Below, one piece after another: positions 9,049 through 54,845 of a stretch of DNA of 64,000 bases (positions are counted from its first letter, which is position 1; every line of letters begins with the position of its first letter). The stretch comes from a bacterium. Lineage in GTDB: Bacteria; Patescibacteriota; Minisyncoccia; Sungbacterales; GWA2-42-14. Below the pieces are notes generated by a model, which ran no database searches, was not told the origin of the DNA, and saw nothing but the letters and a program-made list of their open reading frames with translations. Where the stretch lies: the NCBI GenBank assembly GCA_030649305.1, contig JAUSFV010000006.1:32-64031 (forward strand). Direction: 5' to 3'. The translations under genes and the position numbers were made by a program.

Positions 9049-9122
9049 CGGGCTGTAGTATATCGGCAGTACACATGCATGGGGTGCATGTAGGTCGGGT
9101 TCGATTCCCGACAGCCCGACCA
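9049..9122 (+). tRNA. tRNA-Pro (anticodon GGG), CCA encoded
   Basis: Hand-folded cloverleaf: acceptor CGGGCUG/CAGCCCG, D-stem GUAU/GUAC, anticodon stem CAUGC/GCAUG with loop AUGGGGU, T-arm UCGGG-UUCGAUU-CCCGA, discriminator A. Confidence 0.8.
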
Positions 9123-9138
9123 AAATACAGAACAAAGA

Positions 9139-9174
9139 GATGTAGGCCGGGTTCGATTCCCGGCACCCCGACCA
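9139..9174 (+). pseudogene. Orphan 3' fragment of a tRNA-Pro paralog (variable loop, T-arm CCGGG/CCCGG, acceptor 3' strand CACCCCG, A, CCA)
   Basis: Its acceptor 3' strand complements the orphan 5' half at 8924, not the intact tRNA at 9049; compensatory differences appear in both the acceptor and T stems. Confidence 0.5.
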
Positions 9175-9342
9175 AAAAATTGAAGAAAAAGATGCGGGCC
9201 GGGCCTGCCCCATTAGATGCGAAGCTATCTAATGGGGTGAAATTCCCGGCAACCCCAAAATCAAACCGGACAAAAACGAACTCAAAATACGAAGAAAATC
9301 GATTTAACAAAAAACCGGTAACTAACAAAGTTTTAAATAATT

Positions 9343-13527: not shown

Positions 13528-13563
13528 TGACCCGCCGCGTTGCTATTCTGTATCGCCGCGCTT

Positions 13564-13597
13564 CTTATCGGCTAATTCGTGCGAATTAGCCGATAAG
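13564..13597. repeat. 34-bp perfect palindrome CTTATCGGCTAATTCGTGCGAATTAGCCGATAAG (copy 2)
   Basis: Identical to the copy at 5768; located just after the mtlD terminator. Confidence 0.8.
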
Positions 13598-13651
13598 GAA
13601 AAAATAAAAATGGAACTGGTTTAAAAAAATTTTCTATGGTATCCCCAAACC

Positions 13652-16021: not shown

Positions 16022-16029
16022 TAGTAACA

Positions 16030-16065
16030 ACGCTCCGGCTTTAGTCGGAGCGATTTTTATTTTTA
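16030..16065 (+). terminator. Intrinsic terminator of prs
   Basis: CGCUCCG…CGGAGCG hairpin followed by AUUUUUAUUUUU. Confidence 0.6.
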
Positions 16066-21326: not shown

Positions 21327-21418
21327 AAGATGTCAAACAACTTACGAAATTTATACCATACTCAAATAAAAAACGCAAGAAAAAACCGCCCCGACCGTAG
21401 TCGGAGCGATTCATTGAT

Positions 21419-23680: not shown

Positions 23681-23687
23681 TTTTTCC

Positions 23688-23722
23688 CCTTATCGGCTAA
23701 TTCGTGCGAATTAGCCGATAAG
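23688..23722. repeat. Perfect palindrome CCTTATCGGCTAATTCGTGCGAATTAGCCGATAAG (copy 3)
   Basis: Identical to the copies at 5768 and 13564; again just 3' of a terminator. Confidence 0.8.
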
Positions 23723-24067
23723 AAAATATGCCCACACTAATTTAATTTTATATAAAACCCCCAGCGAGACAAAATAAAAACGCTGCGGGATTCCGCGGCA
23801 TTTTTATCCGCCCCGCGATTGGACAGGTTCAAAAGTTTTAGCATGAAATCACGTGGGTTGCCGCAATTTCAGCCCAAGGGCCGAAACAATGTAGGCATCC
23901 CGAAAAAGTGAGATTGTCCTAAAACCTTGACCCGCAATCAACGGAGCTTATCTTCATTATACACGAAACACAAACCATAAAACAAGACCGCTTCTGAAAA
24001 TGTTGATTATATTTTACAAATATGGTATTCTAAAATCAGAGCACTTTGTCAAAAAATGAGCAAAAAT

Positions 24068-32285: not shown

Positions 32286-32606
32286 GTGAAAGTATGGCTG
32301 GACGACAACCATACGGGACAGAGACCCACTCCGCCCGGATGGATGCATGCGCATAATTTTTCAGAGCTTGTAAAACTGCTGGACGAAAATCCGGAGCCGA
32401 TTGAGGTCATGAGCTTTGACAATGACCTTGGTGATTTTGATGAACACGGAAGGGAGCGAACCGGATACTGGATCATACAATGGCTCGCCGAGAACCGACT
32501 TGATCGGTACCCGAAAAAAGTCCTTGTTCACTCCAAGAATTGCGTGGACAAGCCGAATATCCTCGGCTTTGATCAAAACGTACGAAAGCATCTGCTTTCG
32601 GAATAA
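32286..32606 (+). CDS. Hypothetical protein X3, 106 aa
   Basis: GTG start with AGGAGA RBS; followed by two tandem intrinsic terminators. Confidence 0.45.
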   Translation: MKVWLDDNHTGQRPTPPGWMHAHNFSELVKLLDENPEPIEVMSFDNDLGDFDEHGRERTGYWIIQWLAENRLDRYPKKVLVHSKNCVDKPNILGFDQNVRKHLLSE

Positions 32607-32608
32607 AC

Positions 32609-32640
32609 ACTCCCCAGCCATCACGGCGGGGAGTTTTTTT
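32609..32640 (+). terminator. Intrinsic terminator 1 of the X1-X3 cassette
   Basis: CUCCCC(A)GCC-AUCAC-GGCGGGGAG followed by U7. Confidence 0.7.
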
Positions 32641-32656
32641 ATAACTCGCCGATAAA

Positions 32657-32690
32657 ATCGCTCCGACGTATACGCCGGAGCGATTTTTTT
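32657..32690 (+). terminator. Intrinsic terminator 2 (tandem)
   Basis: AUCGCUCCG…CGGAGCGAU followed by U7. Confidence 0.65.
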
Positions 32691-32751
32691 ACCTTAAGAA
32701 AACCTTTTTTATTCTCAAGATGCGACAGCTGCATTCCTCTGGCAAAGCGAT

Positions 32752-32872
32752 GTTCTCTTGCAGACCATCTTGAGGCCGAGCGGGCATGGTCTCCGACCGA
32801 AGTCGGAGGAGCGAGGCCGAAAGCTGAGTGAGTGCGCTTCGCTGGAACGCACGAGTGTGTCTGCGAGAGGAT
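32752..32872. ncRNA. Candidate structured RNA/REP-like element, copy A (~120 nt), immediately 3' of nrdJ
   Basis: Closing helix GUUCUCUUGCAGAC/GUCUGCGAGAGGAU; inner helices AGACCAU/AUGGUCU and CUCCGACC(G)AAGUCGGAG. Copy B at ~36119 has the same architecture with compensatory substitutions. Confidence 0.35.
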
Positions 32873-32891
32873 ATTGCCGAGCCATCACACA

Positions 32892-35321
32892 TTACGCTTC
32901 AACGGGCATCTTCTGTTCTGCCTCCTTTGGCGCCCCCTTCTCCACCTCGCCCCCCAAATCAATTTCGCACACCCCCGATACGCACGCCAATTCATGCGAC
33001 CCCGATGTTTCATCATCCTCCTCGTAGGTCACAATATTTGCAAAATCAATTTCAGGAAGTTTCCCGACAAGTTCCTCATACTGCTTCTCAGTAATTTCCT
33101 CATAGGGCGAAAGTTTATAGACATGGTCTGACCGCGGCAAAAACGATAATCCTCCCAGCATCTCCCAATTTTTATAGAGCCAGTTTGCCGTATCAATCCA
33201 TTCATCCTCCCCCACCGAAATCGTGACGGAGGGATTATGCTCCGTGAAATTTTCTTTCACCATCTTCCAATATTCCAGCTGCTCGCGAGATGACAAGTCA
33301 TTCCGAAACACCGCCCCACCCGGCGCTTTCACCGGAAATTCAAGAACGTAGGTCGTTGCGGAATTCTCAAGCTGCCCCACTTCCGCGTGATACGGAAACT
33401 TCTGGTCCTTCAACATATGAAACAGGGGGTCGGATGCCGAGATGCGGATACGGCGGATATAGTAGCGCGCATGGCGCGGATGCATGCCGGATGCCGCATC
33501 CACCAACTGCGACACCGTGCCCGACGGCTTCACGCACGTTACACAGGTTGACGCGTTAATTTCAAATCGTTTCGCGTATTCACGATTCACCTCAAGGGCG
33601 CGTGAGCGCATTTTTTGCAAAACCCCCGCGTTACGTACAACCGGAGCATCCCATTGCCCCGTGATAGAAACACCCAACAACCGTTCCTCTTCGCAATTTT
33701 GTTTCCATTCTTTTGAAATATATTTAAAATTCGTGAGGGTTGACTGATAGGTACCGAGGATTGTCGCAAGACGCACTTTTTTAAGAAGCGTTTCCTCCGT
33801 ATCATCCGCACGCGCAACCACCTCGGTCAGATTGCAAAATTGCTTTGATTTCAGGACGATTTCACCGCAGGGATTCGTGCCGGCACTCCCCGAGTCCTCC
33901 GCAAACACCTTCCAGCGCCTGTTTGGAAGCTGAGCCTTGAGTCCCCCGCGATTAAAAATCCCACGCTCGCCCGTACCGCTTTTGGCAAGCGCCAACCATT
34001 CAACAAGAAAGGTCTTCGCATCGGGCTTTTCATTATACACTGCAGAATTATTTGCCATAGCGCGCTGGGGGTCCGAAAGATAAAATTGTCCTGTTTTGGC
34101 GCGCCGCATTTCCTCATCATCCAAATCAGAAAGAGAAATTAAGGCACTCCTCCGCACACCCCCCATTACGACCACTTCGCCGATTTTGCAGATAATGTCA
34201 TGCACATCAATATTCGTCAAACGCTTGCCTTGTCGCGCCAAAATTTTCGCGCGTGAAAAATCAAGAAGCGCCCGTAGGGGGTCAGGCCCAGAACTCCGTC
34301 CACCCATCGTATGAAGCCGCGCGCCCGCGAGACGCAGAAGCGAATAATCAAACGCAATATCTTTTCCCGAATACCACGCATTCAAACCAAGGGTCAGCGC
34401 ATTCCCCCATCCTTCTTTGCTATCCTCAATCACGTGTACCGGAATTTTTTTCTTTCCCTTGGCCGAGCCATCAGGATTTAGGCCGTGTCCGTTTCCGTTT
34501 TGCCGCTTGATAATCGGAAGCTTCTGAACATTTTGCGACTCCACGGAAAAACCGACGCCCGTACCGCACATCAACAAATACATAATCTCGGCAAAGTCCT
34601 TTACCTTTGATGGCGCAATAAAAGAACAATTGTACGCGCACACGTTTGTTTTTCGCGCAGCAGACCCCGCACTCCACATAAGGCGCATGGAAGGCATCAC
34701 TTCCTGACGCAACACGGCTTGCCGCAATTCCTCATATTCTTCTTCTTTCAGCTTGTCCCCGAGATTCTCGCGCATAAAATCAAAATAGCGCCCGACGGTC
34801 TCAACCCAGGTCTCACGCCTTCCCTCTCCATCCATCCAGCGCGAATACGTACGATAATAAATAAATTCGCCAAGCGGATTTTTAAAATATTGTTTGCTTT
34901 CCCGCACAAACTCATTTACTTTTTCGGGAACAAGTTTTTGGCGTTCCCGGATTTCCCCGCGCTTGCTCCGATACAAAATATAGGCCTTCGCGGTTTTTGG
35001 GAAATCCATAAGGATAAGCGCCTCCTCCACCGCGTCCTGAATTTCTTCAATGGTCGGCGTATGCGTCGGAGGATAGGTTTTCACCAATTCCTGCACCACC
35101 TTCTCCGAAATGCGCGCGGGGTCCTGCGACAAATCGCCCTCGCCAACAGCATGCATGGCTCGATACGCCGCGTTCATGATACGGCCTTGGTCAAATGGCA
35201 CAATACGGCCGTCGCGTTTCTGCACGGATATAAACGGAACCACAACTTTTCCTGATTTTCCGACGACGTTTTTGTGTGCCATACGACTTTTACTTAAAAA
35301 CTCATCTGCTTCCGGTCCCAA
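32892..35321 (-). CDS. nrdJ: Ribonucleotide reductase, class II (adenosylcobalamin-dependent, NrdJ-like)
   Basis: Active-site NPCGEI motif, C-terminal Cys pair (…ACVSGVCEID…), ~800 aa single chain. The true start is probably at the internal Met (MAHKNVV, 35282). Confidence 0.7.
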   Translation of the reverse strand: MGPEADEFLSKSRMAHKNVVGKSGKVVVPFISVQKRDGRIVPFDQGRIMNAAYRAMHAVGEGDLSQDPARISEKVVQELVKTYPPTHTPTIEEIQDAVEEALILMDFPKTAKAYILYRSKRGEIRERQKLVPEKVNEFVRESKQYFKNPLGEFIYYRTYSRWMDGEGRRETWVETVGRYFDFMRENLGDKLKEEEYEELRQAVLRQEVMPSMRLMWSAGSAARKTNVCAYNCSFIAPSKVKDFAEIMYLLMCGTGVGFSVESQNVQKLPIIKRQNGNGHGLNPDGSAKGKKKIPVHVIEDSKEGWGNALTLGLNAWYSGKDIAFDYSLLRLAGARLHTMGGRSSGPDPLRALLDFSRAKILARQGKRLTNIDVHDIICKIGEVVVMGGVRRSALISLSDLDDEEMRRAKTGQFYLSDPQRAMANNSAVYNEKPDAKTFLVEWLALAKSGTGERGIFNRGGLKAQLPNRRWKVFAEDSGSAGTNPCGEIVLKSKQFCNLTEVVARADDTEETLLKKVRLATILGTYQSTLTNFKYISKEWKQNCEEERLLGVSITGQWDAPVVRNAGVLQKMRSRALEVNREYAKRFEINASTCVTCVKPSGTVSQLVDAASGMHPRHARYYIRRIRISASDPLFHMLKDQKFPYHAEVGQLENSATTYVLEFPVKAPGGAVFRNDLSSREQLEYWKMVKENFTEHNPSVTISVGEDEWIDTANWLYKNWEMLGGLSFLPRSDHVYKLSPYEEITEKQYEELVGKLPEIDFANIVTYEEDDETSGSHELACVSGVCEIDLGGEVEKGAPKEAEQKMPVEA

Positions 35322-35497: not shown

Positions 35498-35526
35498 TTG
35501 ACAAAAATTAACAAAAATGCTATATT
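35498..35526 (+). promoter_or_regulatory. Sigma70-like promoter TTGACA-N17-TATATT for the small secreted-protein gene
   Basis: Consensus -35 with 17-nt spacer; a 12-bp GC hairpin (35575-35603) sits between the promoter and the RBS. Confidence 0.5.
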
Positions 35527-35840: not shown

Positions 35841-35975
35841 CCAAAAACCCCGACGGACAACCGACGGGGGTTTTTATTTTTCTATTTCTATTGAAGTCGG
35901 ACTTCAATAGAAACTCCAACAAATCTCCCTCCTCCCCACAAAAATCGTTTTACGATACGCCCCTAGCATTTGGTA

Positions 35976-36006
35976 TATTCTTTTTGAGACCATGAGGCGG
36001 CAATGC
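35976..36006. repeat. Partial copy (5' ~30 nt) of the A/B element
   Basis: UUCUUUUUGAGACCAUGAGGCGGCAAUGC matches the copy-B 5' end; followed by a 44-bp perfect hairpin. Confidence 0.4.
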
Positions 36007-36022
36007 AACACGATGCTCTAAT

Positions 36023-36066
36023 AAAAATGTAGCTATATTTGCGATAGCAAATATAGCTACATTTTT
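36023..36066. terminator. 44-bp perfect hairpin (20-bp stem AAAAAUGUAGCUAUAUUUGC, loop GAUA) with A/U runs built in; bidirectional terminator-like
   Basis: Exact inverted repeat seen in the sequence. Confidence 0.55.
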
Positions 36067-36118
36067 CTAAAACAACCAAACAAAAAAGGCGTTTCTCTGA
36101 CGCCCTTCCAAATTCCGA

Positions 36119-36239
36119 TATGTTCTTTCGAGACCATGAGGAGGCAATCCAGCCCGGTCTCCGACCGCAGTCGGAGTGGATTACCGACGACTGAACGAAG
36201 TAGGGCGCCCGGCCGAGCGAGCGTGTCGAGAAAGAACAT
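36119..36239. ncRNA. Candidate structured RNA/REP-like element, copy B (~120 nt), immediately 3' of ftsZ
   Basis: Closing helix AUGUUCUUUC/GAAAGAACAU; inner GAGACC/GGUCUC and CUCCGACCGCAGUCGGAG. Homologous to copy A with compensatory changes. Confidence 0.35.
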
Positions 36240-36252
36240 GGCGAAATCTACA

Positions 36253-37359
36253 CTATTTCTTCCGACGGAGAAACGCCGGCACCGAATCCCACTCTGACTC
36301 TTCCTCCTGTGCGGGTTTCACCGCTCCATTCATGGGCTTCACCGGAGACGCTATGCCGTTCGTCGCGGGCTTGCGCAATTCGGGTGCCACCGCGCGCGCG
36401 CCATTCCCGTTAAATCCTGTTGCAATAACCGTAATTTTAATTTCGCCTTTTTTCAGGCGCTCATCATGCACCGCGCCGAAAATCAACTTCGCGTTCGTAT
36501 CAACAGATTCAGTAATAATTTTCGCGGCTTCATTAATCTCCCACATGGTCAAATCCGGACCGCCTGATACGTTAAAAAGCACTCCGCGGGCGCCGTTGAT
36601 GGAAATATCAAGCAGGGGCGAGCTGATTGCAGCCTGTGCCGCCTGCATATGCCGGTTCTCGCCCGACGCAATGCCAACCCCCATCAAAGCGCTTCCCGTA
36701 TCCTCCATCACCGCGCGCACATCCGCAAAATCAACATTCACCAACCCCGGCATCGTAATCAAATCTGAAATTCCGCGAACGGCATGTTGTAACACCTCAT
36801 CGCAAATTCTGAACGCAGCAAGAAGCGGCGTATTCCGCTCAATCATATTTAAAATCCGATCATTCGGAATCGTAATTAAAGCGTCCACCTTGTCTTTTAA
36901 TCTCGCCCAACCCTCCTCGGCAATTTTTCCTCTTTGATTTCCTTCAAAGGCAAAGGGCTTTGTCACAACCGCAACCGTTAAAGCACCCGATTCTTTCGCG
37001 GCCTCCGCGACAATGGGTGCCGCACCCGACCCTGTTCCTCCTCCAAGTCCGCATGTAATAAAAACCATGTCAGAGCCCTTCAGCGCCTCGTGAATTTCGT
37101 CGCGGTTTTCTTCCGCCGCCTGCCGCCCGATTTCGGCATTCATCCCCGCCCCCAACCCTTTCGTCAGATTTTTTCCAATGTGGATTTTGCTGGTCGCTTT
37201 ATTGTGATGCAATGCCTGCGCATCCGTATTAATCGCAATAAAATTCACGCCGTGAATTTTGGCGTCCATCATACGGGTGATGGCAGACCCACCGGATCCG
37301 CCCACGCCCACAACTTTTATTTTCGCGTAGGTTTCTATGTCGGGTTTTACTTGTGGCAT
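36253..37359 (-). CDS. ftsZ: Cell division GTPase FtsZ
   Basis: GGGTGSGAAPIVAEAA tubulin signature; NTDAQAL; start taken at MPQVKPD…. Confidence 0.9.
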   Translation of the reverse strand: MPQVKPDIETYAKIKVVGVGGSGGSAITRMMDAKIHGVNFIAINTDAQALHHNKATSKIHIGKNLTKGLGAGMNAEIGRQAAEENRDEIHEALKGSDMVFITCGLGGGTGSGAAPIVAEAAKESGALTVAVVTKPFAFEGNQRGKIAEEGWARLKDKVDALITIPNDRILNMIERNTPLLAAFRICDEVLQHAVRGISDLITMPGLVNVDFADVRAVMEDTGSALMGVGIASGENRHMQAAQAAISSPLLDISINGARGVLFNVSGGPDLTMWEINEAAKIITESVDTNAKLIFGAVHDERLKKGEIKITVIATGFNGNGARAVAPELRKPATNGIASPVKPMNGAVKPAQEEESEWDSVPAFLRRKK

Positions 37360-37574: not shown

Positions 37575-38432
37575 ATGAATATTCCAGCAGAGTTTAGAAA
37601 CTTCTCACCATCTTCACTACTTGAAACACCCGAACTCCAAAACTTTATCAAAAATCGTCAAGCCGGACTGAATGAGATGCCTCGTGACATTCTTGAGAAA
37701 ATGGCGGGAATCATCCGCAGTTCCACCGTGCTCACGGGCATCACGTTTGATGGCGGGGTTATCGCGGGCGCCGATGGGCAGTCAACCGATACACGGGGAC
37801 TTGAAATCGCTGATGACCAAGCCCCGAAATTGCACCAGGTGGCGCCACATACCGTTATCGGCATGACGGGCTCGTCCGCCCAATGCGATGAACTAGCGCG
37901 AATCATTGAAGAGGTGCTACGCGTTGATGAAGCAATCAATCAATTCGCAGACACCCCCCTTACCACAGAAGGCACCGTAGGAAGAGTGTCTATGGTAGTC
38001 AGACAAAATCTTCCTCTCGTCGCCTACTATGGCCTTATCGCCATCCCCCTCCTTACCACCATCAACAAGGAAACCGGGGAAGGAAAGGTGTATCATTACG
38101 ATGCCGTGGGAGGATATTCTGACGCCACCGAAGGATTTTGGGCTGATGGTTGCGGGGGCCCGAATGCGAAAGGAATATTCCGAGGAAACACAAAAGATAT
38201 TGCGAAGGGACTTTCAAAAGACGCCGCCATCATGCTTACCGTACACGCGCTCGCAAAGACATGCCATGTCAATGCCGGATGCGGAGGTAAGCTCCTCGTA
38301 AAAGTCATCACCAAGCAAGACGGCATCGTTGATGTATCTCAGGACCGAATCGCGGAAATCTGCAAAGAACTCGGTCCGCGGGTGATCGGAACATATGGCC
38401 TTGGATACCCCTACGCAACCCCCAGGGAATAG
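37575..38432 (+). CDS. prcB: 20S proteasome beta subunit (PrcB-like, with ~49-aa propeptide)
   Basis: Mature N-terminus TVLTGITFDGGVIAGADGQ (Thr1 Ntn-hydrolase). C-terminal …DGIVDVSQDRIAEICKEL resembles actinobacterial PrcB …DGAVDVPESRIAEL. Confidence 0.75.
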   Translation: MNIPAEFRNFSPSSLLETPELQNFIKNRQAGLNEMPRDILEKMAGIIRSSTVLTGITFDGGVIAGADGQSTDTRGLEIADDQAPKLHQVAPHTVIGMTGSSAQCDELARIIEEVLRVDEAINQFADTPLTTEGTVGRVSMVVRQNLPLVAYYGLIAIPLLTTINKETGEGKVYHYDAVGGYSDATEGFWADGCGGPNAKGIFRGNTKDIAKGLSKDAAIMLTVHALAKTCHVNAGCGGKLLVKVITKQDGIVDVSQDRIAEICKELGPRVIGTYGLGYPYATPRE

Positions 38433-38444
38433 GAGGAAAAAATC

Positions 38445-39236
38445 ATGAGACTGTTCCCGGAAAGCGACTATCAATCAAAATCGAACCGAGACAGGTTCGA
38501 ATCGCTCAGAGGCATAATCGAAAATCAACCGCCCCTTGTAGCACTTGCGTATAAAGAAGGACTTTTATTCATGAATTTCGGCACACGACATGATTTCCGC
38601 CGAATTGCTCCGCTCAACGAAGGGAATACCTTAGTATTCGGAGGCGTTGGCAACCGAGGCGATATAAAGGATCTCCACACGAATGGATGGGTAAACCCGG
38701 CAATGCGCCGCCTCTATGCGTGCCTCCCCAGCAATTCAAAAGAGATATCGGGGCGCGTCATTAGCGACGGAATCGCGGATCTTATGCGTTCACGATTTAG
38801 CTTTGTATTCTCGGGACCTTTCATCGCCGAAATTTTCATTGCAGAAGTCGGAGAATCAAATAACGTTATCTACCATATCCAGACCGACGGAAACACATGT
38901 ACCCACGATGATTTCCTCGCGTTGGGAGCCAGAAACTACTGCGCCAATAATCCCCTCCGTTTAAGAGTCGTGAGAAGCGCTGTGGACTCAAGTGTGGGGA
39001 CACAAATCCAAGAAGCAAAGGAAAAAATTGAACTGTGCGCGATTGAACAATACCTTGAAGAGAATCCGCCAAACCCCTCTCAGAGCCTTGAAGAGGCGCT
39101 GAAACTCGGTGATGTTTTGAAAGAATTCTATGTCCGAGAAATCAGCGGAGAGGAAGATCCGGAAAAGACAAAGATGCCTGTTAGCTACAACATTCTCGAA
39201 AGAGGAAAGGGGCTCTTTGTCCATTCAGACAAATAA
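38445..39236 (+). CDS. prcA: 20S proteasome alpha subunit (PrcA-like)
   Basis: …RDRFESLRGIIENQPPLVALAYKEGLLFMNFG… aligns with mycobacterial PrcA …[32 protein letters not shown]…. Confidence 0.75.
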   Translation: MRLFPESDYQSKSNRDRFESLRGIIENQPPLVALAYKEGLLFMNFGTRHDFRRIAPLNEGNTLVFGGVGNRGDIKDLHTNGWVNPAMRRLYACLPSNSKEISGRVISDGIADLMRSRFSFVFSGPFIAEIFIAEVGESNNVIYHIQTDGNTCTHDDFLALGARNYCANNPLRLRVVRSAVDSSVGTQIQEAKEKIELCAIEQYLEENPPNPSQSLEEALKLGDVLKEFYVREISGEEDPEKTKMPVSYNILERGKGLFVHSDK

Positions 39237-39322
39237 TTTAAATGAAAAAGCCCATCCCATATGCGATGCATAGGGATGGGCTATTTATTTTGAGAATTTT
39301 ATCTTTATCACCTTATCTTTAT

Positions 39323-40063
39323 CTAAAAACGGGATTGCTCTTTGAGACCTTTCTTATCCGATTTCGCGCTCAATTCCGCCTTCGCTTTCTCTAAAAAGAA
39401 GTATGTCGCAAGGAGGTTTTCTTTATATTCCTCGTAGGTCGCGCTGTCGGCAAAACCATACTGCACGATTTCTTCCCCCTTCAGCAGGGTCGGCTTCTCC
39501 CGATTGCTTAAATCGGCGAGGTAGCGCGCCTTGTCAAAAGGCTTATCAGCGCGCGAACAAAAGGATGCAACGCGATCGGCAACATTCTGTATCATTTCCC
39601 GAGCACCCTCATCGTGTTCTTTTTTTGCTTTATCGAGTTCTTCCTGCGACGCATACTGATGTTCCGGAACGAATCTCGGAAACCCGAGCGCAAAAAAGGT
39701 ATCCGGCGTAACATACCGCTTCTCGCCTGCCGCAAACACCAGCTGGCCGAAGAGGGCTTGCGTGCCAATTGCAAACGTGTCAACCGGACGCGGAGAAGTT
39801 TTGATGGCTGATACAATCTGAAACGCGTCAAAAAGCGGCGCGTCCACCTGCTTGATCACAAGCTTTGTCCGAACAAAACCCTTCGGAACCACAATGCTCG
39901 GGGAAGCCAATGGCTCTGTCAGACCAAACCAATTCAGTCGGGTTACCAGAGAATTTGCAGAAGGATTCAAAACTGGCCCCACGGGAAACTGGAGTTCCGA
40001 ACCAAGTTCGGTAATCCAATAACCCTTCAAATCATCGAGCCAACTATCGCCCTGTCGCTCCAT
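39323..40063 (-). CDS. Hypothetical protein in the Pup-proteasome locus, 246 aa
   Basis: GAGGAGG RBS; no recognisable domain. Confidence 0.45.
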   Translation of the reverse strand: MERQGDSWLDDLKGYWITELGSELQFPVGPVLNPSANSLVTRLNWFGLTEPLASPSIVVPKGFVRTKLVIKQVDAPLFDAFQIVSAIKTSPRPVDTFAIGTQALFGQLVFAAGEKRYVTPDTFFALGFPRFVPEHQYASQEELDKAKKEHDEGAREMIQNVADRVASFCSRADKPFDKARYLADLSNREKPTLLKGEEIVQYGFADSATYEEYKENLLATYFFLEKAKAELSAKSDKKGLKEQSRF

Positions 40064-40083
40064 GTTTTCTTCCTCCTCTTTGA

Positions 40084-40803
40084 TTACTGCGACCGCCCCG
40101 GCTTCATATCCTTGATGGCGGGGGCACCCCACGATGTATACAACTTCTCAGCCATTCGAATACCCTCTTGTTCGCCCTTTGTCTCGGCCTGAAACATCGC
40201 TCGCATCAAGGCACCCAAGAAAATAGCCTTTTTCGTTTTCATGTCCGGTGCGCGTTCAATCATGGGCCACAAAATCCCTAACACGCGCGCAATAAGATTT
40301 GGATTATATTGCGTCCAAAATGCCGCCTTAATCTCTTCTTTGTCCCGAGAAGACAAACCGTGTAAAAATATTTCGTTTGCCTCCTCCATGGATACCGCGG
40401 GCCAAGAAAAGTAAGGAACCAAAGCGTCGTTCGTAATAATCTTATGCATTGCATAAAGTTGAGAACCCGCAACATGACTAAATGAATCAATTACGCCGAG
40501 TAATTCGTGTGCCGCATCTGAAACCGATGGCCGCTTCTGGTCAAGCGACACGATAACTGGTCGCAATACCAGATCAACCGCAGAACGATTTGCATCGGTA
40601 AACACATGAGCACTCGCATGATCCATGCGCCGTTCCGCATCAGACATCTCAACATTCGTCCAAAGATTCAAAAGAACGTTCTCAAAAAATGCGGAGCGCT
40701 CTTCCGAAGAAGACAGCTCACCAAGATGCTTGAGAATATCGCGCGAGCGCTCCCCCGCCGTATCATACGTTCCGTGAATAATTTCCTCGGCTCGATTTTT
40801 CAT
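40084..40803 (-). CDS. Hypothetical protein in the Pup-proteasome locus, 239 aa
   Basis: AAGGAGAAAAGGGGGAG RBS; no recognisable domain. Confidence 0.45.
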   Translation of the reverse strand: MKNRAEEIIHGTYDTAGERSRDILKHLGELSSSEERSAFFENVLLNLWTNVEMSDAERRMDHASAHVFTDANRSAVDLVLRPVIVSLDQKRPSVSDAAHELLGVIDSFSHVAGSQLYAMHKIITNDALVPYFSWPAVSMEEANEIFLHGLSSRDKEEIKAAFWTQYNPNLIARVLGILWPMIERAPDMKTKKAIFLGALMRAMFQAETKGEQEGIRMAEKLYTSWGAPAIKDMKPGRSQ

Positions 40804-40830
40804 TGTTCTCCCCCTTTTCTCCTTTGTGAG

Positions 40831-41310
40831 TTATGAATCCGGATTCGTTTCTTGTCTTCGTGTTGCTTCAAACATGCGCGGGTCTTCCTCGCGAAATTTC
40901 TCAAACAACTTCTGATATTGAGGTGTCTCCCGCATACGTTCAACATCGGGATACGCGCACATAACGCCTCGTTGCGGAGCAACATATCCCTCGCCCCCCA
41001 TGAGTCCGAGCACCGGATCTCGATCTTGATCAATGAGTATAATCGTATGCTGGCGTTCTTTGGTTTCTGGATTAAAACGCGTAATTTTTTCAAAATTACC
41101 GGAAGACCACGAATACTTATGAAAGGGGCACCGCTCACATGCCGAAAGGTCAATAATCCACCCAGGCGCTCCGTTGGTAATCTCTTTTGGACAAGGAATG
41201 CCAAGTGATGAGGTCGCATTATCAACCACCGAAATAGAAAGAGGGTCTTCACCATTTCTCGTATTGATGGCGCGCTCAAGCCGCCCGATCGCATCTACCA
41301 CATCAGCCAT
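40831..41310 (-). CDS. Hypothetical Cys-cluster protein in the Pup-proteasome locus, 159 aa
   Basis: AAGGAG RBS; contains CPKE…CERCPFH. Confidence 0.45.
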   Translation of the reverse strand: MADVVDAIGRLERAINTRNGEDPLSISVVDNATSSLGIPCPKEITNGAPGWIIDLSACERCPFHKYSWSSGNFEKITRFNPETKERQHTIILIDQDRDPVLGLMGGEGYVAPQRGVMCAYPDVERMRETPQYQKLFEKFREEDPRMFEATRRQETNPDS

Positions 41311-41534
41311 TTTGTTTTCTCCTTTTCAAAGACCAGCCGGAAATTAAAAAGAGGGTAGTGTTTACGCGCCCAAATCTAATTCCCGCCTACGTGCTAGGAA
41401 TAGACTGGGGGTAACAACTACCCTTGCCCTTTTCTTTCCGCCTTGTAAGTTACCCGCATTGTAGCAAAACCGAAAAAATCTGTCAATAGTTCGCGGACAA
41501 ATAAAAAGGGGCTCAAAGCCCCTTGAAGATATAG

Positions 41535-43151
41535 CTATACTCCATCCGGAAAACGAACGCGTTGAAACGCCCCCGGATTCGGATCAAACGGATCCTCATC
41601 ATATTCGGTAACGACATCGGGCGACCAACCCCTTCCGGACTTAGGATAATATCTGAGATAATTCCAGCCCACTTCCATAAGATCCGCGTTCGTATGCCCC
41701 CGGAGTGCTGCAATCCTCTTATCCCGCGCTTCCGCGCGCGTTCCCGAAGGAGCATGATTTTTCGCGTGCAGAATCTCCGATTCCGAAACAATCAACGCGA
41801 CAAGCCCTTTTTGTACGAGTTTATAATACAGACCCTTATCGCGCCGCACATCATGAAAAAAATTATCAAAAAACTTCATACGGCCCCATGCATCCGTTTT
41901 GCTCGTAGTTCCGCTTTTCGTAATAATTTCAAGCGGGAGTATCGGAGCGCTTTCAAACGAATATCCGTTTCGTTCCATGTCGGGCAGAATCCAGTAATGC
42001 AATTTCGCGGCCCACCCGACGTAGGGCGCTAAAATTTCCGCGCATTCGAGGGGAGAGCGCGCCCGCTCAAACGCTTCAATCAAAAAAATATATTTTTGAA
42101 GGCCGTCCTCTTCCTCGTTGCTCCAGAGAACCGGGGAACCGCTCCGCGCCGCCTCCCGAAACAGCGATGCCTTGTACGCAAGAATCGGCTCAAGATACAG
42201 CTTCCGATGCAAACGTACCGCGTCATACTCCTCATTCTGAAAACGAAATGTTTGATGCTCGCTTCCCCACCACATAGTCCGTGTTTGCATGTATGCCAAT
42301 TCGCGCGAAAAGCGCCCCGAGTCTTTTTTATAATCCTCTTTGCGAAGCACCCGACCCTCAATCATGCGAAGCAGGATCCCGAGAATCACGTTGGGTACAT
42401 ACATCTGCCATTCGCACATTGATGAATCAAGACCGATAATCTGAAGGCGCCAGTACTCGCGGCGGTCCGCAAGCGGCTCATCGCACAAAAGCACCATGGG
42501 GCGCATTGGTGCCGTGGATGATGTTCCCGAAAGCCGGTCCACAAACGGAGCGCGCTGGGAGAGCGAATACAAAAGACGCCCCCCATTGGTAACCCATACC
42601 AGCCCCGACCCCGTCATCCACGAGCTTGAAAAAAGAAACGGACCGAGAATGGGTAATGCCTCATCATAGGACACTTCGCGAATATTCAGGGGAAGATTAT
42701 AGTGATTCCCCCACGAAACATAGTGCGTACGAGAACGATAATCCCGGGTGTCCGGAGACCAGCGTTCGGAATTCATGTTGGTATTATTTTTAAAAAACGT
42801 ACAGCCCCCGAAACGCGCGAATTTGGCACGAATGCGCGATGCGGGCGATCCCTGTATATTCAGCGTTGCGGCAATATCCTCAAGAATACGCTCGCCCGCT
42901 TTTCCCCATGCAACAAGGTCGTAGACACTTCCGCATTCGGGAGTCGAAATTTCAAAATGATTTCCGGTATCCCAATATGCCCGTCCGCCGTTTGCGAGAA
43001 AATCTGATTTTACGGGAAGAATCCGCGCCCCATCCCTCATCTGCGGCCGCAAGGATTCCACGGCGTCATGAAGTTTAGCCCAATTATCCCCAAAAATTTC
43101 CATCGGAAAAAAAGCGGTTTCGTTCTCCATACCCCAGATACGCTTTTGCAT
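41535..43151 (-). CDS. pafA: Pup ligase PafA (Pup_ligase/PafA-Dop family)
   Basis: MQKRIWGMENETAF… and …FLANGGRAYWDTGNHFEISTPEC… correspond to PafA MQRRIMGIETEFG… and …[27 protein letters not shown] RBS. The PafA-versus-Dop assignment is by N-terminal similarity only. Confidence 0.6.
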   Translation of the reverse strand: MQKRIWGMENETAFFPMEIFGDNWAKLHDAVESLRPQMRDGARILPVKSDFLANGGRAYWDTGNHFEISTPECGSVYDLVAWGKAGERILEDIAATLNIQGSPASRIRAKFARFGGCTFFKNNTNMNSERWSPDTRDYRSRTHYVSWGNHYNLPLNIREVSYDEALPILGPFLFSSSWMTGSGLVWVTNGGRLLYSLSQRAPFVDRLSGTSSTAPMRPMVLLCDEPLADRREYWRLQIIGLDSSMCEWQMYVPNVILGILLRMIEGRVLRKEDYKKDSGRFSRELAYMQTRTMWWGSEHQTFRFQNEEYDAVRLHRKLYLEPILAYKASLFREAARSGSPVLWSNEEEDGLQKYIFLIEAFERARSPLECAEILAPYVGWAAKLHYWILPDMERNGYSFESAPILPLEIITKSGTTSKTDAWGRMKFFDNFFHDVRRDKGLYYKLVQKGLVALIVSESEILHAKNHAPSGTRAEARDKRIAALRGHTNADLMEVGWNYLRYYPKSGRGWSPDVVTEYDEDPFDPNPGAFQRVRFPDGV

Positions 43152-43221
43152 GCAATCTCCTCTTTGATAAAGAACCAACCTGCTTTCACAATATCAGAAT
43201 CGGCGCATAAGGGAAATATTG

Positions 43222-43255
43222 ACAAAAAAAATAATGAGGCCTAAGAGGCCTCATT
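43222..43255 (-). terminator. Intrinsic terminator after pup (minus strand)
   Basis: AAUGAGGCCU…AGGCCUCAUU hairpin followed by U8 on the minus strand. Confidence 0.65.
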
Positions 43256-43305
43256 ACTATAGAAAAATCTGTTGCGTATTATTAGTAATTAGTTATCTGT
43301 TCGGG

Positions 43306-43521
43306 TTATTCTCCGCCCCGCTGAACGTAGCTCTTCACAAATTCTTCAGCGTTTTCTTCCAAAACTTCATCAATTTCATCCACTAAATCATCCAAATCCT
43401 TCTTTAATTTTTCGGTCTTTTTCTTTTTCTCTTCCTCTTTCGTATCGTCTTTTTTTGGAGTTTCCTCAACCTCTTTTTTCTCTTCGGGTTTTTCTTGTTT
43501 CTTCTTTTGTTCCTGACTCAT
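43306..43521 (-). CDS. pup: Prokaryotic ubiquitin-like protein Pup (C-terminal GGE)
   Basis: …DLDDLVDEIDEVLEENAEEFVKSYVQRGGE is near-identical in pattern to M. tuberculosis Pup …LLDEIDDVLEENAEDFVRAYVQKGGQ. 71 aa, Lys/Glu-rich disordered N-terminus, strong RBS. Confidence 0.85.
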   Translation of the reverse strand: MSQEQKKKQEKPEEKKEVEETPKKDDTKEEEKKKKTEKLKKDLDDLVDEIDEVLEENAEEFVKSYVQRGGE

Positions 43522-43607
43522 GTTTTTTCCTCCTCCCTAAATCAATTTTGTTATACAAAATTAATCGGGCGACCAATCGGCAAAGCCGATTGGTTTAGCC
43601 TTTCTTG

Positions 43608-45257
43608 CTATTCATCATATTCAGGATACGGAGTACGATGGACAGAATAAATGCTTCCGCATTTTTTCGCAATACCCGCGCCAAGCGCACGCCGCAAAAA
43701 TTCATGCCGATCCGCGCCGAGAAGAAGTGGTGCATACTCCGCTTCGGTCATCAGAGGATTTGAACAATCAATTTCATAATATGCGTTTTCCTCCGGAACC
43801 CACACGTCTATCTCCGCCCAATGCCATCCCTGCACGTGCGGCTCAAACAAACGCTGTACCGCGACCTGAAAGCCGGAGCGCGTCGGCGGGGATTCAGAGA
43901 CCGCGCGCGCGATATCGGCATCGCTAATAATCCGATGCTCCCGATGCTTTTCTTGAACGAATTTTTGAAAAAATATGCTTTTTGCGGGGTCGATATTTCC
44001 ATAGCTCCGGTCAAGGCTGATTGCTTTATGCGAACAGAAAGAATCAATCTTGCCGCGCGCCATCAATTCCTCTATGACACCGCGTTTCGTCACCCAATCC
44101 AACATCCCGATACAATCACCGGAATTTCTCCGAAGTTTTTTAACAACATCAAGCCCGAGCGCCACCGCTTCATCATACTCGGGTTCCCGAATACCATACT
44201 CCGCACAATACCTCCCCATAAGCGTTATATATTCTTCAAGAAGATCAAGGGGTAAACAGGATTCTTTGCGATTTCGCATAGAAATTTTTTCTTGAAACGC
44301 GAGGTCCCGCGAAATCTTCCAAAACGCTCTCACGGGATCCGTCAGTATAAACTGACCGCCGAGAAATTCGTCCTCAAGCATCTTTAAATGAATTTCGGTA
44401 AGGGCAATCGTAAGAAAATAGGCGGTCTCACACATGTTTTGATCTGCTGTAATCACATGCAGACGGCGATACAGCGCTGCATCCGCATACGGCACGTCGC
44501 GCGTATTCATTAGGGGCCGTTTGCTTAGTGTGGGATATGTCTCCCCTAGTCCCATCGTACCGATGCCCGCCAACTCCGAAAAAAAATCCGCGCGCTGAGA
44601 AATCTGGAAGTCGCACCACGGGAGCCCCGTCACAAGCCGATTATGGCTTCCCACCTTTCCTTGGCCGTTAAAAATCTGACGGAGTACGAGCCACGGAATC
44701 GTACGTTCAATCAAGGCGCCCCACGGCACGACACGCCGCATAAGATAATTATCATGATGCGCATAGCTTACCGAAAAATCGGCGAGCAGCTCAGGAGATA
44801 CATCAAGAAACGTTTCCCCGCGGCCCAGCGCAAAACCATAATTATTTTTTGATAACAAAAAACCGGTTCCCGCTTCGCGATGGCGTTCTGTCAAAAACCG
44901 TATGATGCGGTCAGCAGCTTCATAGTGCGCGAGTTTCTCTTTGGGTGTGCGGCAAAGGGCGATTGAGAGTTCCGGATGCGCCCCGTCCACATACAATCGC
45001 GCGCCATTCGCAAGAAGAATATTTGTTTCGCGCCACGAGCGTTCCGTAAAATAGGTATGGCTATGATCTTCCCCGTCCGCAAGGCGCGGCCGCGAATCCC
45101 ACAAAGAAAAACTTCCGCCCGAAAGCCACTCGGGCCTGATACGCGACACAAACTGCCACGCGAGATCAGCGGGACTCTGTGAAGAATCCGGCGAACTGAT
45201 CCCATATTCTATTTCGCTTCCCCCATATTTTGGTATCGAGCGCGATTCACGGGGCAT
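43608..45257 (-). CDS. dop: Dop (depupylase/deamidase of Pup) of the PafA/Dop family
   Basis: …[14 protein letters not shown]… and …[19 protein letters not shown]… …[31 protein letters not shown]… parallel Dop RIMGTEVEYGISSP…, [47 protein letters not shown]. Confidence 0.65.
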   Translation of the reverse strand: [549 protein letters not shown]

Positions 45258-45371
45258 ATTTCCTCCCCTTTCTTTATATGTATATATGTAAAGCAACTTA
45301 TTTCATGCTATCACGGCCACTCCAATGAAAAAAGCCCACGACCTCGGTCGGGGGCTTTTGGATGTAATGAG

Positions 45372-47351
45372 TTATAGGTAATGTCCGACCGAAACTGTCT
45401 CAACTTTCTTATCCTCCCCTTCTCGGGGAAGAATACGAACATTCACGATTCGGCCCTTCTGCTTGCCGATAACACTGGCCCACTCTTGGGGGTTCGTAGT
45501 GTTAGGCAAGTCTTCGTTCTCTTGGTATTCTTTAATCGTCGCGTCACGAAAATCAGAGAATGTCAGCCCCTTCTTGCCTCCCGCAATCAATCGTTTGACC
45601 GCGCTTTTCTTTGCGCGAGTCATAATGGACTCAATGATAGCGCCGGACATAAAATGCCGGAAGTGCATGGTTTCCTGTTTCCCATCCGCATAGGTAAGTT
45701 CGACAAATCTGCTCCATTTTTTAGAATCAGGGGTAAGCCCCCAAATTTCAATCGCGGTCCGCTGAATAAAATATTTTGCCATATCCTCCAAAAGAGGGGT
45801 GCCGTTTGTATCACGACGAATAGGAAACTTCATGATTTTGAGGTCAACATCATTTCGCGCATCATTCGTGGGGTCGCAATCGTAAAACTTACGCGGATGT
45901 CCGTTACGGTCTGCCGGAATATAGTTTCCCTCTGTATCATAGAATTTCGGATTCACATAATCAGAACCAACAAGACAAAATGGAAGTTCCGGCACGCAAT
46001 AAATCTTGAGAATTTCCTGAATGCCGCGAAAATCAGGACGGTCAATTTTAATTTTTACGTCAAATCGTCCGGGCCGCAGAACCGCAGGGTCAATCAAATC
46101 CTGCCGGTTGGATGCACCAATCACGATGACGTTTTTCAAACCCTCAACACCATCAATCTCCGCCAAAAACTGCGGTACGATGGTTGACTCAACGTCCGAA
46201 GAAATTCCCGAACCGCGCGTCCGAAACAAACTGTCCATTTCGTCAAAGAAAATAACGACGGGAGAGCCGTCTCCTGCCTTCTCACGCGCCCGCGTAAAAA
46301 TATCACGAATTTTACGCTCGGTTTCACCAACCCACTTCGTAAGAAGTTCCGGACCTTTGATATTAATAAAGTAACCCCGAACGGATTGTCCCGTTTTTGC
46401 GGCAATCTGTTCGGCCAGAGAATTCGCAACCGCCTTTGCGATAAGTGTTTTACCGCATCCCGGAGGACCATACAACAGTACGCCCTTGGGCGGTGCCAGT
46501 TTGTGTTCCTTGAAATGTTCCGCGTAGAGATAGGGAAGTTCAAGCGCGTCGCGAATTTCTTCAATCTGTGCCCCAAGTCCGCCGATGTGCGCGTAGGTAA
46601 TATCCGGCACCTCCTCCAGGAGGAGGTCTTCGGTATCACTCTTTGGAAGCTTCTCAAGTACGAGACCTGAGCGCGCGTCAAATAACAGATGGTCGCCCTC
46701 TTTCAGAACGACGTCTTTCAAAGAATCCGCAATCTCAACAACCCGCTCCTCATCCTGACGCACTTCAATCTGCACACGCCCATCATTCAGGCGGCTTTTC
46801 ATCGTGACTACTTCGCCCTGCCCGTCAAAGCCAAGCGCCTCAACCACATTGAAGGCCTCATTCAAAATAAGTTCCTGGCCCCTCCGAAGAGACCTGCCGT
46901 CAAGAGAAGGATGCAGATTAACTTTCAACTTTCTACCCGCCGCATAAATAACGGCTGTGCCGTCTTCATTCAACAAAGAAAAAATACCGTAAGAATTAGG
47001 AGGCGCTGAAAGCTTTTCCACTATCTCGCGGAGTTCCACGATCTCTTTTTTCACTTCCTGCAAGATCTCGGTGAGTTTCTGGTTTTGAGCAAAAGCCGTT
47101 ATATTTTGTTCAAGCAACGGCTTTTCCAATCTTGCTAATTCTTGCTCCTGCGCCACAATCTGTTCGCGAATCCGCTCGGCCTTTTCCAAAGTATCGCCCC
47201 GGGCATCCGCGCGTTTATGCAGTCTTCTTAATTCCGCGTGAAGTTCTTGAAGTCGTATATGAATCGCGTGGAGCTTCGCGCCAAACGCGTCAAGCGATTG
47301 ATTGCGCGGATCTTCATTCGGCATACGCCACCTCATTTCGTCTGTCAACAA
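45372..47351 (-). CDS. arc: Proteasome-associated AAA ATPase ARC/Mpa
   Basis: N-terminal coiled coil, OB domains, Walker A GVLLYGPPGCGKTLIAKAVANSLA identical to Mpa; ends …VGHYL, cf. the Mpa C-terminal GQYL docking tail. Probable start at Met 47324 (AGGTGG RBS). Confidence 0.8.
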   Translation of the reverse strand: MLTDEMRWRMPNEDPRNQSLDAFGAKLHAIHIRLQELHAELRRLHKRADARGDTLEKAERIREQIVAQEQELARLEKPLLEQNITAFAQNQKLTEILQEVKKEIVELREIVEKLSAPPNSYGIFSLLNEDGTAVIYAAGRKLKVNLHPSLDGRSLRRGQELILNEAFNVVEALGFDGQGEVVTMKSRLNDGRVQIEVRQDEERVVEIADSLKDVVLKEGDHLLFDARSGLVLEKLPKSDTEDLLLEEVPDITYAHIGGLGAQIEEIRDALELPYLYAEHFKEHKLAPPKGVLLYGPPGCGKTLIAKAVANSLAEQIAAKTGQSVRGYFINIKGPELLTKWVGETERKIRDIFTRAREKAGDGSPVVIFFDEMDSLFRTRGSGISSDVESTIVPQFLAEIDGVEGLKNVIVIGASNRQDLIDPAVLRPGRFDVKIKIDRPDFRGIQEILKIYCVPELPFCLVGSDYVNPKFYDTEGNYIPADRNGHPRKFYDCDPTNDARNDVDLKIMKFPIRRDTNGTPLLEDMAKYFIQRTAIEIWGLTPDSKKWSRFVELTYADGKQETMHFRHFMSGAIIESIMTRAKKSAVKRLIAGGKKGLTFSDFRDATIKEYQENEDLPNTTNPQEWASVIGKQKGRIVNVRILPREGEDKKVETVSVGHYL

Positions 47352-47430: not shown

Positions 47431-47502
47431 GCCCCCGTAGCTCAACGGATAGAGCAATCCCGTCCTAAGGGAGAGATGGGAGTTCAATTCTTCCCGGGGG
47501 CA
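47431..47502 (+). tRNA. tRNA-Arg (anticodon CCT)
   Basis: Hand-folded: acceptor GCCCCCG/CGGGGGC, D-arm GCUC-AACGGAU-GAGC, anticodon loop GUCCUAA, T-arm GGGAG-UUCAAUU-CUUCC, discriminator A; CCA not encoded. Confidence 0.7.
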
Positions 47503-51491: not shown

Positions 51492-51528
51492 AAAAAGCTG
51501 CTCCGACTTAAATCGGAGCAGTTTTTTA
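51492..51528 (+). terminator. Intrinsic terminator after the clp-like gene
   Basis: CUGCUCCGA-CUUAAA-UCGGAGCAG followed by U6. Confidence 0.7.
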
Positions 51529-54590: not shown

Positions 54591-54845
54591 AAACTAATGT
54601 TTTTATCCACCGCATTTTTAACAAAAAAAATGCGGCTTTTTTATTTCCCCAAAACTTTTTTCACCATACTCCCCCCCCAAAAAAAACGGGGGGAAGAAAA
54701 GAAATCCTTTTGGCGGAGCTCTCGCAGGCAGAAAAAGCTTGGTTTTTTGTGAAACAAAAATTTTTCTGCCGAGAGGCAGTGGTGCTCGCCCGCAGGAGGC
54801 GGGCAACCACGATCCGACAAAAAGATTTCTTTTCTATACCAAACT

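Follow-up and report, generated by a model that had tools for sequence, protein, structure and literature searches.

The stretch at positions 32752-32872 of the 64-kb window (the whole length of DNA that was analysed, 64,000 nt of contig JAUSFV010000006.1) is one copy of a phylum-wide family of elements in Patescibacteria, about 135 nt long, in which a three-way junction fold is conserved. A preliminary description had noted this element (copy A, behind nrdJ) together with a second one at 36119-36239 (copy B, behind ftsZ), and had argued for selection on structure rather than simple duplication of sequence. Both elements are present at these places, and the argument received strong support, with compensatory changes on both sides at 43 of the 44 base pairs in the model. 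Selection clearly acts on the fold, whose helices carry compensatory changes above controls, as is expected in general of a conserved structured RNA or single-stranded DNA (ssDNA) motif.

We read the element on the strand bearing GGUCUCCGAC, here named the GGUCUC strand, which is the + strand for all four copies found in the window. The median full length of the model-defined elements is 135 nt. The consensus is composed of a closing helix (P1), an arm P2-P3-P3b and an arm P4. P1 comprises about 20-26 bp with the greatest sequence variability of all parts, and is often broken or capped by tandem G.A mismatches in a CGAG/CGAG context, followed by a G-C clamp; both flanks read GAGCGA because the tandem G.A and the clamp extend P1. 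The short P2 is followed by a 3-nt bulge (GCA or GGA) and then by P3, about 10 bp, which in subtype 1 (e.g. copy A) is GCCGAGCGG/GAGCGAGGC with G.A pairs and in subtype 2 (e.g. copy B) can be any perfect helix. Between P3 and P3b there is a conserved 7-nt bulge, GC(A/U)UGGU (GCWUGGU). P3b is usually CUCCGAC-N4-GUCGGAG; it is UUUUUGU-GAAA-ACAAAAA in copy C and different again in copy D and in several copies from metagenome-assembled genomes (MAGs). A junction of 3-5 nt leads to P4, a two-part stem with the loop CGCUGGR, and the 3' strand of P1 follows.

The inner GAGACC/GGUCUC helix of the preliminary description did not survive the comparison of homologs: its GGU belongs to the unpaired bulge GCWUGGU, its CUC is part of P3b, and the family lends it no support. 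Pairing of ACCAU with AUGGU, as such a helix or as a pseudoknot between J1/2 and the bulge, can be drawn in A, in B and in a few relatives, and across the family it is at the level of shuffled J1/2. Read as the complement, the element shows a 7-bp hairpin with ACC(A) behind it, taken here as no more than a resemblance to tRNA.

Covariation was evaluated on a model-based alignment of 83 distinct sequences. Standard pairs filled 82.7% of the cells, compared with 37-47% when the partners were slid by 1-3 columns and 56.9% in shuffles. Double-change cells amounted to 896 vs 298 in shuffles, none of 500 shuffles equalled the observed value, and the covariation score was 0.447 vs 0.08-0.14 with slid partners. 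As this alignment was fitted to the structure, two independent checks are reported: the covariation of P3 was already clear on an ungapped, structure-blind MAFFT alignment, and every one of the 18 column pairs with highest mutual information is a predicted base pair. Outside the helices, position 3 of the bulge covaries with the last base of the P4 loop (UA 27, AG 25); this is a contact in the tertiary structure or else the mark of a subfamily. The homologs do covary, and the element is no fragment of a mobile-element open reading frame (ORF), the two points on which the preliminary description had staked its claim.

Through a seed search with GGTCTCCGACNNNNGTCGGAG in one genome per species, at least 118 loci were collected, about half of them in Patescibacteria MAGs with the hairpin inside the same context of about 130 nt. 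The hosts of the element include Saccharibacteria, Paceibacterota, Colwell-, Wolfe-, Nealson-, Lipton-, Uhr-, Collier-, Harrison- and Sungiibacteria. When folded singly, about 46 Patescibacteria loci gave the same three-way junction. The covariance model (R1) was made from a hand-specified structure with Infernal realignment; MAFFT/RNAalifold alone gave just P3 and P3b. Built from homologs, it recovers A, B and a wide family: 87 matches in 70 sources, with 69 distinct full-length elements, some of which do not contain the hairpin of the seed search.

In some genomes the copies are closely related. Near-identical cores were found at L008, L014, L083, L093 and L109 of the Colwellbacteria JACOXB01 and at L099 and L115-117 of CAZRYK01, and in one genome head-to-head doublets of elements stand about 21 nt apart. 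Two loci of one MAG (L099:7049-7345 and L116:880-1176) have identical flanks, an inverted head-to-head pair and identical cores, and differ only in distal P4, which is AUUGC/GCAAU in one and CUCAC/GUGAG in the other, complementary in both; this swap suggests recombination between copies. The nearest matches to the window FtsZ are Sungbacteria and Parcubacteria proteins. In a relative with FtsZ identity of 90%, an element follows ftsZ in the same place and orientation with all helices changed, and more distant FtsZ-syntenic relatives have no element there. A search of 2.9 million viral contigs gave one hit, to the hairpin only and unrelated to the element; a phage origin was rejected on this essential absence.

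Four copies were found by R1 in the window, all on the + strand, in place of the two noted before, and a truncated copy besides; helix sequences differ among A, B, C and D. Copy A occupies 32741-32878 with its outer P1 (GGCAA...TTGCC; 85.5 bits, E 5e-25) and copy B 36116-36243 (63.9 bits, E 4e-18), so the location given for them earlier stands and the length has to be extended at both ends. Their closing helices are complementary and the differences between them preserve pairing, as described before. Both fold better than dinucleotide shuffles on either strand (z -3.8/-3.2 for A and -2.8/-2.8 for B).

Copy A belongs to subtype 1, its P3 holding the conserved strands with G.A mismatches. The bulge GCATGGT (32784-32790, +; family consensus GC.uGGU) lies directly 5' of the P3b hairpin CTCCGAC-CGAA-GTCGGAG (32791-32808, +), which has 7 bp and a tetraloop, and the conserved P4 loop CGCTGGA is at 32840-32846 (+). 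Copy B, of subtype 2, has a plain Watson-Crick P3 (GGCAATCCA/TGGATTACC) and a degenerate P4 loop (CGCCCGG). The hairpin CTCCGACCG(A/C)AGTCGGAG was indeed found at 32791-32808 and 36159-36176, with no match in 100 shuffles of the window, and the 18-nt form CTCCGACCGNAGTCGGAG is exact at 32791 and 36159. It had been called a conserved hairpin, which is true as far as A and B share it; its sequence is not conserved, since C and D carry other complementary sequences and the hairpin covaries.

Copy C (54695-54835, +; model match 54705-54827, 59.3 bits) has the P3b TTTTTGT-GAAA-ACAAAAA, compensated throughout relative to A and B. Copy D (3116-3249, +; model match 3124-3242, 22.9 bits, E 5e-5) is the most diverged of the window copies, with the P3b TCGCCC..GGGCGA, and occupies the 150-nt gap from rpsG (3250-3717, minus strand) to the next minus-strand gene (2623-3099). 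The truncated copy, at about 35975-36012 (+), is a 5' fragment of a B-like element (TTTGAGACCATGAGGCGGCAATGCAAC vs TTCGAGACCATGAGGAGGCAATCCAGC in B, with the 12-mer GAGACCATGAGG in common); it reached 7.8 bits, under the threshold of the covariance model.

All four full copies are placed tightly behind a minus-strand stop codon. The rpsG stop (TAG, 3250-3252) is 0 nt from the clamp of copy D, the nrdJ stop (TAA, 32892-32894) 14 nt beyond the end of A, the ftsZ stop (TAG, 36253-36255) 9 nt beyond B, and the yqeY stop (TAG, 54846-54848) 10 nt beyond C. The preliminary description had placed A and B directly downstream of minus-strand genes, which is correct and also general: at the 3' end of the GGUCUC strand 46 of the 69 elements adjoin a convergent stop of an opposite-strand gene within 120 nt, 28 of these within 14 nt. 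From the other end of the element, distances to ORFs are evenly spread with no such clustering. Of the downstream ORFs, 44 are on the opposite strand and 21 on the same one, and divergent intergenic regions hold just 7 of 58 elements. The GGUCUC strand is antisense to the adjoining gene in about two thirds of cases, with the complement being mRNA-sense; about one third of the copies have the opposite orientation relative to adjacent genes, for example L067, L068 and L093 within co-directional gene runs.

The adjoining genes are housekeeping or highly expressed. Partners outside the window include five aminoacyl-tRNA synthetase (aaRS) genes and those of S7, S12, L11, S21, IF3, LepA, GroES, RNase Y, TopA and RecG. 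Among the adjoining stop codons, 16 of 29 (55%) are TAG vs 68 of 337 (20%) elsewhere in the same loci (Fisher p 8.6e-5), and the triplet often runs on as TAGG(C) into the P1 G-C clamp. CTA stands next to the element in 19 of 35 cases where a gene ends there and in 2 of 32 otherwise; it is thus tied to gene ends, so that TAG is a property of the gene-element junction and not of the element, and CTA is no insertion target. The enrichment points to a coupling with the end of the gene, and may stem from structural overlap or from a connection with RF1/UAG termination.

In the window, the reverse complement of the element lies in the 3' untranslated region (3'UTR) or the intercistronic RNA of the partner genes. 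Directly downstream of the reverse complement of B there is an intrinsic terminator on the minus strand (GGCGTCAGAGAAACGCC then TTTTTTG, 36083-36109), which places the reverse complement of B within the ftsZ 3'UTR. Between the plus-strand cREC_REC gene and copy A, two terminators with a hairpin and T/A runs are located at 32604-32690; the second (GCTCCGACG..CGCCGGAGC) has runs on both sides, and nrdJ transcripts would therefore cross the reverse complement of A before ending there.

In first place we put, if tentatively, a function in cis, as an RNA module located at the 3' ends of mRNAs or between cistrons. The element would be transcribed within the neighbouring housekeeping mRNA, in the window always as its reverse complement, and would stand between the stop codon and the terminator or next cistron. 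There the stable junction, with a closing helix of 20-26 bp from about 0-14 nt past the stop, could block 3'-to-5' exonucleases, the same helix could be a processing stem for a double-strand-specific RNase, or both, and the conserved unpaired bulge and P4 loop might form the docking site of a conserved cellular factor. The first rank was given because only in this reading is transcription essentially guaranteed, by the layout of genes and terminators; the reading also accounts for the position, the housekeeping neighbours and the stop-codon coupling. RNase III stems of rRNA operons and of the phage T7 R1.1 type are comparable in having about two duplex turns with small internal loops, between cistrons or after a stop, and by analogy a cut would leave the 3' end protected by structure or set the enclosed RNA free. 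The known stems, however, are plain irregular hairpins or surround rRNA, whereas the element encloses a conserved junction of about 90 nt with conserved loops.

Several observations weigh against a cis-acting module. With about one third of the copies in the opposite orientation, a strictly strand-specific cis RNA cannot explain all copies. The GGUCUC strand folds better in 46 of 53 elements (mean -76.1 vs -69.9 kcal/mol), and CGAG/CGAG, the thermodynamically optimal tandem G.A motif, is found on this strand at the base of P1 and in P3. Mismatches on it are G.A in 225 cases vs C.U in 31, independent of neighbour orientation, and flanked G.U exceeds A.C by 35:10 in single-sequence folds and by 36:23 in the model alignment, where the bias is limited to P1. 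No U-tract follows the element in either orientation, so the element itself is no canonical terminator.

The strand evidence is divided: folding energy and G.A motifs speak for the + strand, whereas the complement is favoured by gene context, by the position of the terminator and by UNCG loops. cUNCGg tetraloops are read in 10 of 58 elements as the complement vs 1 of 58 forward. The wobble strand test was ambiguous overall, with 103:82 on the raw model alignment beside the flanked counts above, and showed no correlation to neighbour orientation. No single explanation fits all the evidence. The three roles proposed earlier, a 3'UTR stabiliser, a REP-like element and a small RNA (sRNA), all stay candidates; as the + strand that was folded then is antisense to the genes that the element follows, the 3'UTR role would fall to the reverse complement.

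Second comes the possible but rather unlikely case that the element is the gene of a trans-acting sRNA made from the GGUCUC strand (+ here), in which the long P1 would be a processing or protective stem. The exposed UGG motifs (GCWUGGU and CGCUGGR) might bind a protein or, by analogy with the T-box, the NCCA 3' end of tRNA. The greater stability of this strand and its excess of flanked G.U speak for such an RNA, as do the tandem sheared-type G.A motifs with purine-rich junctions, which are typical of folded RNAs, and the strand-specific features that are kept whatever the orientation of the neighbours. The covariation of bulge position 3 with the P4 loop would fit a compact tertiary fold, on the 5' side there are regularly 20-120 nt to spare as possible promoter room, and aaRS and ribosomal protein genes are enriched among the adjoining genes.

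Several points count against the sRNA. A consensus scan gave no sigma-70-like promoter upstream of the + strand copies in the window, and across the family no promoter is conserved: -10-like hexamers at -23 to -16 from P1 numbered 17 vs 10 in the control, which is unconvincing. The minus-strand terminator occupies the expected promoter site of copy B, copy D has just about 20 nt before a divergently placed start codon, and the head-to-head pairs, only about 21 nt apart, leave no space for promoters of their own. No terminator follows the element, transcription would run into the convergent gene, and the UNCG loops favour the other strand. The T-box antiterminator shares with the element a helix, a 7-nt bulge on the 5' strand with UGG, a short capped hairpin and several aaRS neighbours; its 7-nt bulge pairs through UGGN with tRNA NCCA. 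The element differs in that the bulge is GCWUGGU and not UGGNACC, with UGG at the other end, and it has neither a Stem I/specifier nor a competing terminator and lies downstream of genes, not in 5' leaders. A T-box identity was rejected on the bulge, on the position 3' of genes and on the Rfam T-box model, silent even at E<=10. Use of the P1 arms as guides was also discarded, as a 12-mer comparison with the rest of the window gave nothing of interest.

Third, and unlikely in our judgement, the element would be a folded ssDNA element like repetitive extragenic palindromes (REPs) and bacterial interspersed mosaic elements (BIMEs) or like integron attC, the substrate or domesticated relic of a structure-recognising transposase or recombinase; landing beside gene ends and effects as RNA would then be by-products. 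The multiple copies (four per 64 kb in the window), the near-identical cores at many loci in JACOXB01 and CAZRYK01, the truncated copy at 35975-36012, the L099/L116 mosaic with only distal P4 swapped, and the variable presence among FtsZ-syntenic relatives fit such an element, and G.T and tandem G.A stabilise DNA too. In contrast, the unpaired motifs are conserved phylum-wide, whereas REP/RAYT pairs are species-specific, and all helices differ among the four window copies, so that no recent spread has taken place here. No transposase, integrase or reverse transcriptase was seen among the 40 window proteins scanned, from 64 kb of genome. The better-folding strand in the window is the C-rich one (taken as the leading-strand template) and also the transcription template, and would thus be least exposed as ssDNA; in 46 of the 69 family members the GGUCUC strand coincides with the C-rich strand, a bias confounded with gene orientation, and a replication-linked orientation was dropped as it is not separable from the latter. 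The essential absence from viral contigs, and CTA being present only where a gene ends and hence no insertion target, also count against a mobile ssDNA element.

REP, BIME and REPIN sequences of Proteobacteria, associated with RAYT transposases, are likewise interspersed multi-copy structured extragenic repeats, which like the element gather at gene 3' ends and in the spacers of co-directional or convergent gene pairs and seldom occur in divergent promoter regions. They occur in both orientations and in inverted doublets, which the head-to-head doublets resemble, and are transcribed into 3'UTRs, where REPs stabilise the mRNA upstream. A REP that lies no more than about 15 nt from a stop codon is known to affect translation termination. 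They differ, however, as simple imperfect palindromes of 20-40 nt with a species-specific consensus, a 5' GTAG, usually hundreds of copies and a RAYT gene, whereas the element is a three-way junction of about 135 nt whose helices vary within a genome and whose unpaired motifs are conserved across the phylum, and no RAYT-like gene was seen in the window. A REP/RAYT palindrome was rejected for the length, for the three helical arms and for the helices that differ among the window copies.

The Correia/NEMIS elements of Neisseria and other bacterial transposable elements of the miniature inverted-repeat type (MITEs) have 100-160 nt with ends that pair into a long stem, and are intergenic and co-transcribed with their neighbours, which is also similar. 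RNase III acts on the stem of the Correia element. The terminal inverted repeats of MITEs are conserved in sequence and accompanied by target-site duplications; in the element nothing varies more than the terminal helix, neither conserved terminal repeats nor a duplication were found, and the apparent direct repeat GAGCGA is explained by G-C, C-G and tandem G.A pairs extending P1. A MITE identity was rejected for these features.

Integron attC sites keep structure while sequence varies, measure 57-141 nt with a sometimes branched terminal structure, follow directly after or overlap the stop of the upstream ORF, and fold best as the bottom strand. The better-folding strand of the element is also the bottom strand relative to the upstream gene, and adjoins or overlaps its stop. 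The element has no R''/R' core sites (RYYYAAC/GTTRRRY), its stem ends being GCGAGC.., GCCCGG.. and others, no cassette arrays and no integrase found nearby. It is flanked by core housekeeping genes (ftsZ, rpsG, nrdJ, aaRS), after which the copies are dispersed, and has conserved internal motifs absent from attC; an identity as attC was rejected.

Less probable again is a new functional RNA class specific to Patescibacteria and tied to translation termination and tRNA ends. By analogy, the mRNA-sense strand may give a tRNA-acceptor-like end, the 7-bp hairpin with ACCA, past a preferentially UAG stop; or the RNA of the opposite strand may dock NCCA 3' ends via the two exposed UGG motifs. Refuted is the last alternative, by which the element would be a plain intrinsic terminator, an inverted repeat that arose by chance and was duplicated once, or a small protein gene on the minus strand; it could point to minus-strand ORFs (67 and 60 aa) over A and B sharing LRLRSET and to terminator-like hairpins with a CUCCGAC stem at 16026, 21382, 32655 and 51494, but is contradicted by 44 covarying base pairs across phylum-level divergence.

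A small protein gene was rejected in detail because the shared LRLRSET is only the translated hairpin, the rest of the two ORFs is unrelated, C and D have no such ORFs, and the substitutions are pairwise compensatory. The element was rejected as an intrinsic terminator as the outer stem has neither a T-run behind it nor an A-run ahead of it, and separate canonical terminators follow A and B, beside the elements and not on them.

Known families gave no identity. Rfam 15 at gathering threshold found two tRNAs only in the whole window, and at the permissive level (E<=10) over 32600-33000 and 35900-36350 nothing overlapped A or B, only neighbouring terminator hairpins being matched; the Rfam comparison proposed earlier thus ended without a match on either copy. 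The families covered included hammerhead, twister, pistol, hatchet, T-box, Y RNA/YrlA, 6S, tRNA, HEARO and riboswitches. ARAGORN called only tRNA-Pro (9049-9122) and tRNA-Arg (47431-47502) and no tRNA on the elements. A literature search, including the literal motif, revealed no description of the element, and no validated small RNA exists, according to a preprint on the TM7x transcriptome. The architecture, the phylum-wide conserved loops, the tight placement after stop codons and the TAG bias match no described family tested here. In behaviour the element resembles known interspersed structured repeats and orphan non-coding RNA motifs.

Other repeats share parts with the element. A second structured repeat (type 2) has in common with it just GGU and the CUCCGAC-N4-GUCGGAG module; in its fold, a four-way junction, the closing helix is conserved in sequence (AUCCUCCCCUUUCGAAGG/CCUUCGAAAGGAGGGGAU; z -4.8 to -6.3). 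It was found at L004:3659-3778, L023, L032, L047 and L086, all of one MAG (STB_112) with at least five copies, and also at L003, L013, L069, L079 and L107. Stand-alone terminator-like hairpins with a stem close to P3b, (G)CUCCGAC...GUCGGAG(C), are located at 16026-16055, 21382-21411, 32650-32690 and 51494-51523 of the window. The P3b-type stem seems to be a recurrent module in the window genome, and the same hairpin is present within the 23S rRNA gene at L051. Another conserved hairpin, CTTATCGGCTAATTCGTGCGAATTAGCCGATAAGG followed by an A-rich tail (5761-5833, 13556-13628 and 23681-23753), forms a separate small repeat or terminator family. At several loci a DnaA-box-like 9-mer (TTATCCACA or TTATCCCCA) lies 1-3 nt past the GAGCGA flank (about position 4400 in L042, 4090 in L095, 510 in L084, 1290 in L090 and 1795 in L030), three of them in a single Saccharibacteria genome.

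The window has the look of a Patescibacteria genome; its proteins include ComEC, FtsZ, FtsA, NrdJ, BtuR, a cREC receiver domain, S7/S12, YbeY, YqeY and HisRS. Between nrdJ and a plus-strand ORF of 91 aa with no Pfam match there are divergent near-consensus promoters at 35498-35526 (+) and 35468-35440 (-), which read TTGACA-17-TATATT with an extended -10 and TTGATA-17-TATGAT. The unit of this ORF ends at a perfect 20-bp bidirectional hairpin (36024-36067) just before copy B. Around copy C and yqeY, pairs of direct repeats with 87-92% identity bracket the region (53882-53981/55325-55425 and 55661-55779/56164-56285).

The 5' and 3' halves of tRNA-Pro(GGG) are partly duplicated in tandem around the intact gene at 9049-9122 (8909-9191; families D7, D13 and D15), and ARAGORN and Rfam each call a single tRNA there. 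A Pup-proteasome-like cluster, unusual for a genome like those of the candidate phyla radiation (CPR), extends from 37575 to 47351. It comprises two proteasome-subunit-like genes (37575-38432 and 38445-39236), two Pup-ligase family genes (41535-43178 and 43608-45296) and an Mpa/ARC-like AAA ATPase with OB domains (45372-47351).

Patescibacteria/CPR account for much of bacterial diversity, with genomes that are tiny and intergenic regions that are very short. To our knowledge, almost no non-coding elements have been characterised in these bacteria. The element described here occurs in several copies per 64 kb beside core genes, with more than 40 covarying pairs and with unpaired motifs conserved from Saccharibacteria to Parcubacteria and Microgenomates. 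That such a costly element is retained in genomes so small points to a probably important role. A new covariance model would improve the annotation of thousands of CPR MAGs. The element also brings with it a link to UAG stop codons, and if the reading in terms of termination and tRNA ends were true, model bacteria would have nothing to set beside this RNA device of a whole phylum. The element is a candidate for the way in which Patescibacteria form, protect or process their mRNA 3' ends; alternatively it may represent a new class of trans-acting RNA or of ssDNA element.

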